A DNA stretch of 63,573 nt, filler included, from an uncultured Methanosarcinales archaeon (GTDB lineage: Archaea > Nanobdellota > Nanobdellia > Woesearchaeales > CAZKBD01), in assembly GCA_964550945.1 (NCBI GenBank). It is 5 parts of 5 records of this genome, joined end to end, with 100 filler letters (N's around TTAATTAATTAA, not from the genome) between each part and the next. Parts side by side here need not be neighbours in the genome. Positions count along the whole stretch, not along the records: positions 26,948 to 40,155 come from CAZKBD010000052.1; 4 more parts are not named here. One strand, 5' to 3'. This document shows positions 13,416-53,478 of the stretch, one piece after another. A program made the position numbers and the translations under genes. The notes beneath the pieces are model-generated. The model was not told the DNA's origin. It searched no databases and was given only the letters and a program-made list of their open reading frames with translations. How positions within the stretch are numbered: position 1 is the stretch's first letter; each line of letters begins with the position of its first letter.

Positions 13416-13515
13416 NNNNNNNNNNNNNNNNNNNNNNNNNNNNNNNNNNNNNNNNNNNNTTAATTAATTAANNNNNNNNNNNNNNNNNNNNNNNNNNNNN
13501 NNNNNNNNNNNNNNN
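13416..13515. other. Artificial contig linker
   Basis: N-run + TTAATTAATTAA + N-run, 100 nt. Confidence 0.98.
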
Positions 13516-26847: not shown

Positions 26848-26947
26848 NNNNNNNNNNNNNNNNNNNNNNNNNNNNNNNNNNNNNNNNNNNNTTAATTAAT
26901 TAANNNNNNNNNNNNNNNNNNNNNNNNNNNNNNNNNNNNNNNNNNNN
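26848..26947. other. Artificial contig linker
   Basis: N-run + TTAATTAATTAA + N-run. Confidence 0.98.
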
Positions 26948-32577: not shown

Positions 32578-33657
32578 ATGGAAGGTAAAAAAATGAGACA
32601 TGACAAGCATCATGTTTTGGCGATTATTTCTATTGTTGCTGTTGTTGCGATTGTTGCAATTGTAAGCTTTTTTGTTGGAAGAGGAAGCACTAGTTCTGGT
32701 GCTGCTGCTGAATTTGGGCAGGCTGATTTAGCAGGGCAAGCATATAACCCAAATACTCCCATTGCAGGCACTGATACAGTGACTGGTAATCTTGTTGTGC
32801 CGTCTGGGAAGGTAGGTATAGGGACAACTTCTCCAGCTGCGCTTTTAGAAGTAGGAAGCAATAATTACGCAGGACCAGCATATGTTCGTGTTAATTCTGC
32901 AGCTGAAAGAGTAGCTGGTGTTCAATGGGCATCAGCAGGAATTCCGATATGGTGGTTATATAAAACTAATGACAATTCAAATAAACTTCTGTTAGGATAT
33001 GGATCACCATCTACTACCTTAATGACGTTTACATCTAATGGTAATGTTGGGATTGGAACAACAACTCCAGCAGCAAAGTTGGATGTTAATGGGAACATAA
33101 CGACCGGGAACATAACATCTTCAGGAACGATTTGTGATAAAAACGGATGCATTGGAAGTGGAGGAAGTAGCGGTTCTGCTGGCTGGACAGAATCAAGTGG
33201 AGTGACTTCTACGAATAATAATGTTGGAATTGGAACAACAACCCCTCCAACAGCAAAGTTGGAAGTTAAAGGAGGGGGTATAATCTGGGATGGCAGTTTT
33301 TCTGCTAAAACTACGGCTACACAAAATAAAAGAGTATTTTTTAATGCTGACTGTGGTGACTATTACACCTATAACGGTCCTTGCGTTTATTTGACTGACT
33401 ACTATGATTCTTCAACAAAGGTCTTGTACTTAACTCCACATAATATCCGATTCAGAGATGGAACTTGGGGAAAGGAAACTTTAATAGATTATACTAAAAT
33501 TACAATCAGTAAAGTAGATGGTACTGGATCAGATATAGCTGAATTAGGCATAGATGGATTAACAATAAGCAAATTAGCAGGATCAGGTTATGCAAAGGCG
33601 TGCATTGATGCTAATGGGCAGTTATGTAGGAATGGTGTTGGCAGCTGTTCTTGTTAA
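32578..33657 (+). CDS. Membrane-anchored fibre-like protein
   Basis: N-terminal TM; three VGIGTTxP..KLxV repeats. Confidence 0.75.
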   Translation: MEGKKMRHDKHHVLAIISIVAVVAIVAIVSFFVGRGSTSSGAAAEFGQADLAGQAYNPNTPIAGTDTVTGNLVVPSGKVGIGTTSPAALLEVGSNNYAGPAYVRVNSAAERVAGVQWASAGIPIWWLYKTNDNSNKLLLGYGSPSTTLMTFTSNGNVGIGTTTPAAKLDVNGNITTGNITSSGTICDKNGCIGSGGSSGSAGWTESSGVTSTNNNVGIGTTTPPTAKLEVKGGGIIWDGSFSAKTTATQNKRVFFNADCGDYYTYNGPCVYLTDYYDSSTKVLYLTPHNIRFRDGTWGKETLIDYTKITISKVDGTGSDIAELGIDGLTISKLAGSGYAKACIDANGQLCRNGVGSCSC

Positions 33658-33683: not shown

Positions 33684-33968
33684 TCATCTAATCCTTGCGC
33701 CACAGAAGTGGCAATAATCTCCTTCATAATTAATTTGAGCTCCACAAAATGGGCAAAATCTCTGATGATGCCCCTGAGCAGCAGGTTGTTTCTGCTTGAC
33801 AACTCTCTCTTTGGACATTGCTGCAAATATTAATTTAAAGATGCCAACCATAATTAACACTAAACCAGCATAAATAAACAATACTAATTTCTGTTTATCA
33901 ATGTAATAAGAAGCAGCTGCTACTAAGCAACCAATAATCAGATAAGCGATTCCATGGATTTTTACCAT
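33684..33968 (-). CDS. Membrane protein with zinc ribbon
   Basis: Two TMs; CPFCG...CHFCG. Confidence 0.8.
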   Translation of the reverse strand: MVKIHGIAYLIIGCLVAAASYYIDKQKLVLFIYAGLVLIMVGIFKLIFAAMSKERVVKQKQPAAQGHHQRFCPFCGAQINYEGDYCHFCGARIR

Positions 33969-33971
33969 TTT

Positions 33972-34121
33972 TTATTGCTTGCGCACTTTCTTAGATTTCT
34001 TCTTTTCTTCTGGCGCAAACTCCTCAACTATTGCGCCGCAGTCATTGCAGATTATCTGATTCAATTCTTTCTTAGCAAACACCTTATCGCTTCCGCATTC
34101 CGGGCATTCTTTTTGCTTCAT
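33972..34121 (-). CDS. TFIIB-type zinc-ribbon small protein
   Basis: CPECGS...ICNDCG; ATG 34121 overlaps the lon stop. Confidence 0.75.
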
Positions 34122-35482
34122 TTTGTTTTCAAAATCTTCCTTAATATATCTTCCTTGCCTTTCCATACTAATGCTTCTTTCAAAACCTCTCCAATAGTTT
34201 CAACCGCTATTATCCTTACTTTGCCTAATTTTTTCGGTTCGACAATAATATCCTGGAGATTGGATTTAGGAACAATGATATTCTTAATGCCAGCTTCAAT
34301 AGCAGCCTCAACCTTTGATGTTACGCCTCCAATAGGCAATACATCTCCTCTGACAGATAACGAGCCAGTCATTGCCGTATTCTGCTTTATAGGTATGTTC
34401 TTAAATGCAGATATCACAGATGTTGCAACAGCAATAGAGGCAGAATCGCCCTCAACTCCTTCATATGTTTGTAAAAACTGCACATATATATCATATTTTT
34501 CCTTTAAATCCTCGCCAAAATACATTTTTATTATTGCAGAGACATTCTTTATAGCTTCTTTTGCAATCTCTCCTAGCTTACCAGTTGCTATTATCTCTCT
34601 TTCCTTGCCTCCAGGCGTTACTTGGCTTTCAATAGGCAATATTATCCCTGAATAAGCCTCTTCTCCTCCGATAACAGCTAATCCATTAACTCTGCCAATT
34701 TTATTGCCTTCTGTGATAATAACTTCATATTCTTTTTTCCTTTCAATATATTTGTCAGCAAGTTGCTTTTCCAAAGTTCTAGCAATCTTCTTGGATTCTT
34801 TTATATGCTCTTTTTCAACAGTCTTCGCTCCTTTTTCCTTTGCTAAATCTCCTGCTGCCCTGATCAATCCTCCAAGTTCCCTTAGCCTTAAAGTAAGATG
34901 GCCTTTCCTGTTTGCCATCCTTCTAGCTAACTCAATTATATCATCAACAGCATCCTTTGAAAATGGAGGGATCCTTTTATCCTTAGCAACTTCTTGCGCA
35001 ACAAATATCGCTATCTTATTCCTATTTTCTTCTGTGTCAATCATTGTTTCGTTCATATAGACTTCATAACCATACCCCCTTATTCTTGATCTCAGCGCAG
35101 GATGCATATGCCTTATTGTCTCTAGATTTCCAGCAGCAATCAAAATAAAATCGCAAGGAACCGGCTCTGTATGCACCATTGCTCCAGCACTTCTTTCACT
35201 CTGTCCAGTTATTGAAAATTTTCTCTCTTGCAATGCAGATAATAACTCTTGTTGCGTATGAGGCTCTAATGTCGCAATCTCATCAACAAATAACACGCCT
35301 TGATTTGCTTTGTGGATCATTCCAGCTACAACCCTTTCATGAGCTGGTGTTCCTAGGCCTCCTGAGTTTTTGCATAACATGCCGTTAACTATCACATTTC
35401 CAGAACTAGTTGTAACATTGTACAACTTACCTTTATAATTGATTTTTTCTACTTTTATTACTTTTTGCTTTGTGAGTTTCAT
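34118..35482 (-). CDS. lonB: LonB C-terminal part preceded by a 39-aa C-intein
   Basis: MKLTKQKV...LYNVTT...[30 protein letters not shown] catalytic Ser; PIGGVTSK. Confidence 0.93.
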
Positions 35483-36906
35483 GCTTCAGCTTTTTTTAGT
35501 ACGAATCTTTTATTGTTCAAAATTTCATATAGTGAATTTGGCGTTAAATTTAATAATTTCATGCAAGTCTCTGCCCCATAGCCTCGTTCAAGCAACTCTT
35601 CATATCTGCTTCTTTTTATTCTTAAGAATTCATTAATTGTGCTAATTAATTTCTCTTTTTTATAAAAACAGTAGTTCACCTTCATTTTCCTTATGAACAC
35701 TAGTAAATTATCAATTTTGGTCGATATCAACAGCCTATACAAGTACACCTTTTCGGTATGTGTTTTCCTCTTTATGATGGAAGTAGTTTTAATTCCCTTG
35801 CTTCCCAAGAATGCCTTTATTTTATGCATAAATTCGTATCGATTTTTTTCCAAGTCTTCGGTCCCGGTTATAGCTATATCAAACGTATTCAGATAAAATT
35901 TGTTCACGTGGACTTTAGGAATACCAACCTCTCCACCAAAAATTGAACCAAAGAATTGATCTTGAAACTCATCTTTTAAATATACCCAATCTGGGATTTC
36001 AAGTTCTAATGAAGATTTATTCCCTCTTGGAGCTCCCAACGCCAAGAAAAACCTTATAACCTTCCTATTAGTATTTTGGTAACACCACGAATGCCCTTTT
36101 TCTCCGCCCTCTATTACTCTTGAGTTCTTATTCAATCCAAAGATGTTTTCAATATCTTTCCCAAATTCTTTTACTGCTTCTAACTCTGAACTTGATAAAA
36201 AAATGCCATTTAAATTATCAAAGATTCCTCCATCCCCATATGTAGTTCCGAGAACTCGTGTAATTAAGAGTAATCTTTGATTATCGAGTTTTAATGGTAA
36301 TAATCCTTTTTCTTTTAACCAGTTTGCTGCCTGTATTGGAACAGGGATATGCTTTTTTGCATGCCACCATCTAGTCTTCCCTATTTTCTGACCCATGGCT
36401 TTTGCAATTCTCTTATATCCCCAAGTAGGATTTTGTGCTTTGATATCCAAATAATTGTAATACAATCTGCATTGTTCTTGTTGTCTTTCATCGTAAGTAT
36501 TTATTATATCCTGTTCATCAATTATAACATCCTCTGATTTAGAGATAACATCATCATCGGCTCTGATATCTCTTGCTTCCCTATAATCAATCTTCCCATT
36601 CTTATTGATAGCTATCTTATGTTCTGGGGTTACAATAAGTTCTTTATTTTCGGAAGTTGTTAGTTTTATCATTTTACCATTGTAATCATATCTGTTGCAT
36701 GATAAAACTTCAACTGGAGAAACTGAACCGTTTGTTTCACCTAGAACAGACAGCGCATTTTTTGGAAGAAATATTGCTTGGTAATTGTTCTGCCTCTCTA
36801 TTTTCTCGCTATGGTTGGAAAATAGGAGGTCAATTTCTCGCCCAATCTCGACATTTGTCATGCTACCCTCTCCTACTTTTGTAATTACTTGAGAAGGACA
36901 AAAAGT
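35366..36906 (-). mobile_element. Intein with LAGLIDADG endonuclease, split across two ORFs
   Basis: Inserted at HDPFQ/SGG; block [17 protein letters not shown] and FGSIFGGEV motifs; terminal KN followed by Ser. Confidence 0.9.
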
Positions 36907-37521
36907 TTGGAAAGGATCATGAAGCACATCGCCAAGAAGAGCGCCAGCATGCGCTCCTGTTGCATCCCAAAAAGGCGCTTGTTTTTTGTTGTAGTTATCT
37001 ACTATTACCTTGGGATTCTTGGTCTTATTATCCATCCTCTTGCCTAAATTAAGGAATATGATAAATGCTGCCAAAAATATCATGCCGCCAAGGAAAAAAG
37101 CAGCAAACATTACATCACTATTGTAATAAGACCTAACCCACCACGGAGCAATCATTGCAAATATCACTAAAATAAACATGAATACATTCTGGTTTTTGAA
37201 AAGATTCATGCCCTCAATTCTAGAGCGCATAACTAATTCTCTGCCTTTGCCAGCTGGAACAGTCCTGATTAAAGGCTGGTTTTCATCATTTGGATTAGGG
37301 AATGAAACCACATCAACCAATTTTTCCTTGGGCATTAGCTCTGCTAGACCAATGCCTAACATGGATTTTCCTGTTCCAGGCGCGCCAATCAAAAGAACAT
37401 GCCTGTGCTGCAGAGCAGCCTTTTTGATTACCTCAACCGCATCATCCTGGCCAATAACCTGGTCTATTATATTTTTCTGGACCTTGATGTCCTTTGTTGA
37501 TTTAAACTTAAGTTGCGCCAT
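35479..37521 (-). CDS. lonB: LonB N-terminal part (205 aa) fused to N-intein + LAGLIDADG
   Basis: [16 protein letters not shown], two TMs, [20 protein letters not shown] followed by intein sequence. Confidence 0.93.
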
Positions 37522-40155: not shown

Positions 40156-40255
40156 NNNNNNNNNNNNNNNNNNNNNNNNNNNNNNNNNNNNNNNNNNNNT
40201 TAATTAATTAANNNNNNNNNNNNNNNNNNNNNNNNNNNNNNNNNNNNNNNNNNNN
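40156..40255. other. Artificial contig linker
   Basis: N-run + TTAATTAATTAA + N-run. Confidence 0.98.
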
Positions 40256-53378: not shown

Positions 53379-53478
53379 NNNNNNNNNNNNNNNNNNNNNN
53401 NNNNNNNNNNNNNNNNNNNNNNTTAATTAATTAANNNNNNNNNNNNNNNNNNNNNNNNNNNNNNNNNNNNNNNNNNNN
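53379..53478. other. Artificial contig linker
   Basis: N-run + TTAATTAATTAA + N-run. Confidence 0.98.

Follow-up and report, generated by a model that had tools for sequence, protein, structure and literature searches.

Organization of the locus

The window, the whole stretch of 63,573 nucleotides analysed here, comes from an uncultured archaeon titled Methanosarcinales and placed by GTDB in the Woesearchaeales (assembly GCA_964550945.1). In this groundwater archaeon the membrane protease LonB is made as two proteins, most likely joined by a split mobile intein. The window consists of five contigs joined by N spacers (13416-13515, 26848-26947, 40156-40255 and 53379-53478), and neighbours across a spacer are not real neighbours; the lonB locus lies well inside one contig (C52, 26948-40155), away from the contig ends.

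LonB is encoded by two open reading frames (ORFs) on the minus strand. ORF1 consists of 205 residues of LonB followed by a 475-residue intein N-part, which opens with TFCPSQ and ends in KKAEA and a stop codon. ORF2 opens with a 39-residue intein C-part ending in CKN, followed by 415 residues of LonB beginning SGGLGTP. ORF1 carries Walker A and two hydrophobic helices, and ORF2 carries Walker B, the lid and the protease domain. The features are as follows.

35479-37521, minus strand: lonB N-half gene, 680 residues, N-extein and intein N-part with fused homing endonuclease; matches TIGR00764 (profile positions 2-196) and intein models
36907-37521, minus strand: LonB N-extein, 205 residues, ending HDPFQ, with Walker A at 37363-37386; Foldseek matches to Thermococcus Lon 3k1j and 4zpx
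37138-37185 and 37051-37107, minus strand: two hydrophobic helices in the N-extein, a putative membrane anchor
35482-36906, minus strand: intein N-part, 475 residues, splicing region at about residues 1-130, then endonuclease; fold matches 2cw7, 7qss and 1dq3
36904-36906, minus strand: Thr1 (ACT), predicted first nucleophile; only Cys, Ser or Thr at this position in 131/131 members
36688-36690, minus strand: Tyr73, the motif NX position after Asn71-Arg72; covaries with residue 1, alignments to 9hth and 5o9i
36619-36630, minus strand: block B TPEH (Thr93, His96); Thr and His in 131/131
36364-36423, minus strand: segment before the endonuclease, presumably helix-turn-helix-like; helices in the model, conserved, weak in Pfam
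36226-36255, minus strand: LAGLIDADG motif 1 (intein Asp225); Asp in 130/131, fold matches I-DmoI and I-Tsp061I
35923-35955, minus strand: LAGLIDADG motif 2 (intein Glu326); Glu in 130/131
35518-35583, minus strand: conserved helix-turn-helix-like helix pair at the C-terminus of the N-half, found also in the nearest contiguous relatives; no Pfam match
35479-35482, minus strand: split point, where stop and start codons overlap in ATGA; many relatives share this overlap, others have gaps of up to 4180 nucleotides
34118-35482, minus strand: lonB C-half gene, 454 residues, intein C-part and C-extein; matches TIGR00764 (195-605), Lon_C and LonB lid
35366-35482, minus strand: intein C-part, 39 residues, net charge +7, block F YNVTT at 35408-35422; ends Cys-Lys-Asn, no His
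34121-35365, minus strand: C-extein, 415 residues, with Ser+1, Walker B at 35279-35296, lid and protease domain
34436-34450 and 34301-34315, minus strand: protease-domain motifs GDSAS and KVEAA, which we take to supply the Ser-Lys dyad

An earlier note on this DNA had described two ORFs, an intein at HDPFQ/SGGLGT, an ATGA overlap, an endonuclease in frame on the N-part and the two Walker motifs on different polypeptides. ORF and profile reading bore out this layout and its coordinates. The intein has a G+C content of 0.33, lower than the 0.41 and 0.38 of the exteins. Another intact lonB in the genome, together with a lack of splicing or association, would have counted against that note's reading; no second LonB was found in the source genome (92% complete), in which TIGR00764 scores above its cut-off here alone. 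The other Lon_C match in that genome is a 624-residue protein without Walker A.

The gene is naturally split

lonB is naturally two genes, broken inside the intein, as confirmed by gap-free contigs over the junction together with conservation of the break in relatives. The frames around an A7 run, from which the earlier note argued, are insufficient alone. One A more leads into a TGA that lies two codons upstream of the ORF2 start in its frame and one A fewer leads into the third frame, so that neither joins the genes, as the note had said; a one-base insertion downstream of that TGA and ahead of the ATG would make the two frames one (both read by hand). The junction itself (35460-35500), where the note had looked to reads for a check, is crossed with no gaps by contigs from three of four runs, belonging to two studies. 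The bridging contigs are X1 (34840-35572, seven substitutions), X3 (35352-35559, none) and X6 (35393-35569, one), and X5 ends at 35448. Their depth is low, 2.6-3.9, and X1 or X3 may come from the source sample.

The note's expectation that the split is natural and conserved held in each sample of relatives. Both halves were read in 20 whole loci from an order-level sample, and all 20 are split, with a C-part of 37-39 residues; so are 12 of 12 loci from a genome scan (one duplicates L003), which are titled Woesearchaeota, or Methanosarcinales for records falling among Woesearchaeota in trees. The C-extein is present in none of the best 120 of 221 protein homologues, in a length range that admitted the fused 1134-residue form. 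Two longer homologues are N-halves with an extra intein, both ending at the same break, and the break recurs in more than 100 proteins at 55-72% identity. Thr1, whose conservation the note had also raised, is common in the family (43/131), with Cys or Ser elsewhere.

An assembly error, or a dying pseudogene, is in this light extremely improbable. The single base that would join the frames and the low depth of the junction contigs speak for it; three contigs from two studies without an insertion or deletion at the junction, and the same break in so many proteins, speak against an artefact, and a pseudogene would be the sole LonB found in the genome. A homopolymer or assembly error was rejected on the frames around the A7 run, the gap-free contigs and the split relatives. 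A programmed frameshift or read-through giving one polypeptide, which would then splice in cis, is very unlikely. It draws on the A7 run before the stop and on the -1 frame of the C-half in the window and many relatives. However, a -1 slip on the A7 run leads into the TGA, a conserved start codon opens the C-part some 39 residues upstream of Ser+1, and the distance from stop to start ranges from -11 to +4180 nucleotides across loci, in all three frame offsets and in some with whole genes between the halves, which excludes a conserved frameshift. L067 and four mini forms were left out of this comparison of frame offsets and identities.

Splicing residues and class

Residue 1 was compared across 131 N-parts (P0005, which ends in unrelated sequence, was left out of the alignment). 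It is Cys in 53, Thr in 43 and Ser in 35, and nothing else, with 7-19 residue types at each of positions 3-12. On trees built without it, residue 1 switches 18-33 times, depending on the tree. Its codon varies at all three positions, and 20 of the 75 single-base amino-acid changes from the codons used stay within Cys, Ser and Thr. Judged from these sequences, the pattern is that of a required nucleophile. Cys3 was considered as an alternative nucleophile and rejected; it is present in only 6/131 members, so that the C3A mutant proposed in the earlier note would be uninformative.

At the C-terminal end, all 47 split loci have the terminal Asn, Ser+1 and Asn F:4, and none has a His in the last 18 residues of the C-part. 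The penultimate residue is Lys in 36, Ser in 8, Ala in 2 and Thr in 1; G:5 is mostly Cys or Val. The earlier note had pointed to the penultimate Lys and Asn F:4 as unusual, with possibly atypical chemistry. Both, like the missing block F His, are no signs of novelty, as they are inherited from contiguous Thermococcales Lon inteins at the same site, and penultimate Lys and Asn F:4, being common to those inteins, were rejected as marks of new chemistry.

The element is an intein by its blocks A, B, F and G and by its insertion at a conserved host site that has empty alleles elsewhere, and a natural split intein by its N- and C-parts on separate, conserved genes. It has the residues by which class 1 is defined, namely Cys, Ser or Thr at 1 and +1, a terminal Asn and the block B His (PMC5222942). 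The class 2 (KlbA) arrangement is absent, as position 1 is always a nucleophile (131/131). So is the class 3 WCT triplet (Trp B:12, Cys F:4, Thr G:5), of which the earlier note had already missed the Cys; B:12 is Ile, Val or Leu in 131/131 and F:4 is Asn in 47/47. With 345 residues of nuclease fused to its N-part the window intein is not a mini-intein; L068, L070, L138, L141 and L143 are.

A re-fused relative of 171 residues, L130, is predicted to adopt a HINT fold (predicted local distance difference test score 94; Z 23.7, root-mean-square deviation 1.6 Å over 161 aligned residues), a prediction made on this single chain and not on the window's two chains together. The charges of the two parts are complementary, +7 for the window C-part and -7 for N-part residues 100-140, and the C-part is positive in 45/47 loci. 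Intein residues 1-40 (36787-36906) are far more variable than the rest, with a mean top-residue frequency of 0.31-0.44 vs mostly 0.6-0.9, and with recurring residue types.

Residue 1 and motif NX

Two points absent from the earlier note are the mobility of the intein across families and a residue that tracks residue 1. The latter is position 73, which follows Asn-Arg and stands 23 residues before the block B His; it covaries with residue 1 with a Cramer V of 0.97 (131 members). The Cys1 members (53) have Gln in 27, His in 25 and Asn in 1. The Ser1 members (35) have Tyr in 34 and His in 1, and the Thr1 members (43) Tyr in 42 and His in 1. Tyr is found in 76/78 Ser/Thr members and 0/53 Cys members, and the window intein combines Thr1 with Tyr73. 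His covariation at columns 46, 32 and 75 showed no clear link to residue 1.

The register comes from sequence alignments. The family profile aligns position 73 to the His of Lys-His in 9hth (Aes123 PolB1), and the relative L143 aligns it to Arg-His in 5o9i; Fig. S7 of PMC10189870, an alignment, bears on the same register. Arg or Lys precedes the position in 126/131 members. Motif NX was described as a His after Arg or Lys, specific to Ser1 inteins and essential in three tested (PMC10189870; PMC12707363). In these aligned sequences the published rule, His with Ser, is reversed in the Lon split family.

The pattern recurs in independent comparisons. On the endonuclease tree the association holds in 6-7 of 7 independent pairs and is reversed in none (median p 0.03). 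A second lineage keeps it (Tyr in 8/9 Ser/Thr, 0/3 Cys), as do split representatives of 50% clusters (12/12 and 0/5; one row was unmatched and some may overlap earlier rows). The switch from Cys to Ser or Thr appears to have been made about 8-14 times in the family, with a coupled NX change. We tentatively suggest that a homing element splits an essential gene on landing and that its NX residue may switch between thioester and oxyester chemistry, Tyr licensing Ser1 or Thr1 and His or Gln going with Cys.

Several observations weigh against this suggestion. On splicing-region trees 4/5 and 2/3 pairs agree, and with 3-5 starred independent pairs per tree the numbers fall short of significance (p 0.125-0.5). 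Contiguous relatives have Arg at NX with Cys, Ser or Thr at position 1 (L131, L132, P0139, P0154, P0156, P0157), so that a hydroxyl at position 1 does not require Tyr in the contiguous background. His stands at NX in three Ser/Thr members (P0060, P0105, L133). The linkage of positions 1 and 73 could also stem from recombination. In the group closest to the split clade, P0139 is a contiguous LonB intein that combines Thr1 with an NX Arg.

Proposed mechanism

A naturally split bifunctional intein at the Lon site DPFQ/SGG, using class-1-type trans-splicing with Tyr-assisted oxyester chemistry, is predicted with good confidence. Both halves would be translated from one transcript, coupled via the ATGA overlap. 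The basic 39-residue C-part would dock on the acidic end of the splicing region of the N-part and complete the HINT fold. The N-to-O shift at Thr1 would be aided by the block B Thr and His (His96) and by Tyr73, replacing the usual NX His. The N-extein would then be transferred to Ser+1 and the Asn would cyclise without a block F or penultimate His, giving a full-length LonB of about 620 residues. The LAGLIDADG nuclease on the N-part would be released from the membrane-anchored precursor only after splicing. The freed nuclease would cut empty lonB alleles, and repair would copy the element including its stop and start codons.

Two findings are unfavourable to this scheme. The element lacks Asp F:4, His F:13 and the penultimate His, as well as the NX His on which three Ser1 inteins depended when tested (PMC10189870). 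A Shine-Dalgarno-like word is also missing before the C-half start of the window (one is present in 14/30 loci, a count without a null model). A scan for sigma-70 promoters and terminators gave 20 sites vs 14.1 +/- 3.7, with a bacterial consensus in an archaeal host.

Trans-splicing might instead skip the first step, with Ser+1 attacking the N-terminal junction directly in a class-2-like manner and residue 1 merely a small structural residue. This route would suit the poor nucleophilicity of Thr1 and the lack of Asp F:4 and NX His, two usual helpers. It is nevertheless improbable, since Ala or Gly is found at position 1 in 0/131 members though Ala is one base from the Ser and Thr codons, the NX residue changes with the sulfur or oxygen nature of residue 1, and 2jmz ranks 23rd by structure (Z 19.8 vs top 23.7).

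A similarly small probability is given to the absence of any splicing, the intein parts serving as a docking clasp for a two-chain LonB and staying in the AAA+ domain. In favour of a clasp, three usual catalytic helpers are missing and conservation is far lower over N-part residues 1-40 than beyond them. But the same helpers are missing in the contiguous Thermococcales inteins, the residues that form covalent intermediates are all invariant or restricted to nucleophiles, and a 500-residue insert beside Walker B would be hard to fit in the hexamer.

Family of architectures and origin

The lonB C-half was found in 378 and this C-part in 23 of the 401 genomes sampled from the order. Unpublished genomes are counted here, one of the 23 being G315, and no other claim rests on those genomes. 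Empty alleles were found at the site in 29 cases reading DPFQ/SGG, with the junction DNA examined for 28. The 47 split loci have the nuclease fused to the N-part in 33, as its own gene in 8 and not intact in 6. The samples comprise the best 120 of 221 protein homologues, 150 of 388 order-sample matches, 150 of 363 cluster-representative matches and, for the second locus set, 20 of 40 matching genomes. L033, L046 and L053 (unpublished genomes) were left out of the locus reading, and one half is missing in the stretch examined for L031, L037, L048, L051, L079, L080 and L135.

Contiguous homologues with nuclease occur in Thermococcales and in L131 and L132, two complete small genomes of the same class; closer ones are P0139, P0140 and P0142, one labelled Micrarchaeota. 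In a whole-element tree the 27/27 split rows form one clade (100/99) inside two successive contiguous groups, with bootstrap not fully settled. Since the split clade is nested in this way, the split, as read from this tree, arose once, from a contiguous bifunctional intein, at the boundary of nuclease and C-part. The C-terminal helix pair was rejected as unique to split forms, as it is present in the contiguous P0139, P0140 and P0142.

A 171-residue Ser1 mini-intein in lonB (L130:4184-4696, genome G578) is contiguous and nested in the split clade with fused nuclease. It appears to be a split intein re-fused after nuclease loss.

Cargo between the halves includes MazG, DUF3795, TrmB, radical SAM, ribbon-helix-helix and small helix-turn-helix genes and unknown ORFs. 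Unrelated cargo is seen at L070, L072, L028, L029, L136 and L140, with an unknown ORF of 106-130 residues common to L136 and L140. Related basic ORFs of 58-76 residues lie between the halves in L025:3854-4027, L027:4386-4613 and L060:4330-4554, with an ATGA overlap with the N-half stop in two. Neither these gap ORFs nor the C-terminal helix pair has a Pfam match.

Mobility and probable homing

The intein is mobile across families and probably still homes; the conflict of intein and host trees, with both endonuclease acids kept, points this way. An extein tree groups largely by family, and split status needs 20 changes over its 31 rows, 12 of them forced by starred branches. Split and empty states occur within one genus (g237) and three different intein types within one family (f59). 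Intein and extein identities correlate weakly (rho 0.22). In approximately unbiased (AU) tests on the intein tree 3/6 extein clades were rejected (p 1.7e-5, 2.7e-31 and 0.004), and one of the two finished reverse tests also gave a rejection. L068 (G286) and L018, from distant hosts, have N-parts of 93% nucleotide identity and exteins of 58% and 72% amino-acid identity. L068 has itself lost its nuclease and has a 61-residue helix-turn-helix gene between the halves.

The nuclease has a two-motif LAGLIDADG fold by Foldseek matches to I-DmoI and PI-PkoII, with a weak Pfam match (PF14528, E 0.038), and Asp225 and Glu326 are each kept in 130/131 members. Each homing event would split a new lonB gene, since repair would carry over the entire element with its stop and start codons.

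Other results tell against mobility. The empty alleles were picked from families that also hold split ones, a choice that favours intermixing. In the AU tests on the intein tree 2/6 extein clades were unrejected and 1/6 is already in the tree, and the second finished reverse test did not reject. When split status was shuffled the figure was 22.5 changes, and 81/500 shuffles were as low as the observed 20. Repeated loss adds to the pattern.

Neighbouring genes and other inteins

Two small zinc-ribbon ORFs lie downstream of lonB on the minus strand, at 33972-34166 and 33684-33968. The first has a TFIIB-type ribbon (E 3.8e-8) and overlaps the end of the lonB C-half by 49 nucleotides. An ORF on the plus strand (32578-33657) encodes a 359-residue Gly/Thr-rich protein with an N-terminal hydrophobic helix, repeated VGIGTT and no Pfam match, perhaps a surface protein.

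One other intein end was found by pattern in the source genome G000, a His-Asn/Ser inside a P-loop-like motif of a 1065-residue ORF on contig C4. A distant contiguous intein allele at the same Lon site and in the same order (L076-L078, from G011, G166 and G201) has 428-429 residues, Cys1, a His-Asn end and Asn F:4. A further intein inside Walker A stands beside the Lon-site one in P0072, P0129, P0130 and L078. L005-L017 are distant intein homologues (24-35%), chiefly of the nuclease part, in other ORFs of 223-1139 residues. Among NCBIfam models, that of intein-containing RtcB is also matched by the window intein (E 1.5e-23). L018, L020, L021, L023, L026 and L027, titled "uncultured Methanosarcinales archaeon", group with Woesearchaeales-type LonB in trees, and their titles may be wrong.

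Implications

The family appears to show a whole bifunctional intein breaking once, still spreading, shedding its nuclease, gaining cargo and, in one genome, re-fusing. This contrasts with published accounts of natural split inteins, which present them as mini-inteins or attribute them to invasion by a foreign nuclease. Thr1 is found in a third of the family, against the statement of Tori et al. that it was unobserved in nature, although their engineered S1T intein splices (PMC2807308). Reviews place Thr1 in class 1 with no natural example in the text seen (PMC4031507, PMC5222942, PMC7765530), and a 2026 paper still gives Cys or Ser for position 1 (PMC13014065).

How the position-1 nucleophile is selected is an open question according to Pasch et al., and no Cys1 intein had usefully been made cysteine-less (PMC10189870). 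With some 8-14 natural switches coupled to NX, the question becomes testable by double mutants. Should the NX residue act as the switch, the family would offer a natural case of trans-splicing from Thr1 that uses one active-site His, and a natural recipe for making cysteine-less split inteins from Cys1 ones. The nuclease-less members would be ready-made compact split inteins for protein engineering.

Comparison with known systems

The contiguous Thermococcales Lon inteins (Pab Lon, which reportedly splices, and Pfu Lon; compared on P0121-P0128) share with the window intein the insertion site, the Thr-x-x-His block B and a helix-turn-helix-like and LAGLIDADG insert. They also share the C-terminal end, with Asn F:4, Gly for His F:13, a penultimate Lys and Asn/Ser+1. 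They differ in being one polypeptide, with Cys1 in 8/8 and Arg at NX, whereas the window intein is split, has Thr1 and an NX Tyr, and opens its C-part with a longer basic strand. PfuLon and PabLon were noted as lacking the penultimate His (PMC3906313).

The fractured genes of Dassa et al. 2009 (PMC2677866) resemble the window in having both parts at one locus on the same strand, a start overlap and opposite charges. They occur mostly in phage and have a C-intein of 33-54 residues; the endonuclease between N- and C-intein is a free-standing invader of the GIY-YIG or Vsr-like type. In contrast, the host gene in the window is a cellular housekeeping gene, and the nuclease is the LAGLIDADG of the intein itself, read in frame with the N-part. 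A free-standing endonuclease between the halves, the strict mark of a fractured gene, is not present in the window and is present in 8 relatives; relatives with a free-standing or lost endonuclease match steps II and III of the fractured-gene model (PMC2677866). With a nuclease that is the intein's own and in frame, and with the split clade placed inside contiguous bifunctional groups, the origin is read as fission rather than invasion.

In the open literature, with subscription journals outside the coverage, no paper was found on a split Lon intein, on Woesearchaeota split inteins or on a natural Thr1 intein. Within the literature that could be searched the architecture is undescribed; by its sequence the element is a member of the Lon-site intein allele, and of class 1 by the sequence definition.

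The cyanobacterial DnaE and Nanoarchaeum equitans Pol split inteins, like the window intein, are broken between blocks B and F and have a short basic C-part. Split inteins have been defined as mini-inteins (PMC4760082), and canonical ones as old, immobile and at separate loci (PMC2677866); the window intein differs in its retained nuclease, adjacent halves and apparent horizontal spread. The cysteine-less Ser1 class 1 inteins (PolB16 OarG and Aes123 PolB1; Pasch et al. 2023, PMC10189870) are like the family in having a hydroxyl at 1 and +1, the block B His and Arg or Lys before NX, and 9hth and 8cpn are matches in both sequence and fold. In the rule of Pasch et al. the NX His belongs to Ser1 inteins, with two exceptions (one Tyr), and nothing is conserved there in Cys1 inteins (PMC10189870). 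The Lon split family lacks this NX-His signature and instead has Tyr with Ser1 or Thr1, and His or Gln with Cys1.

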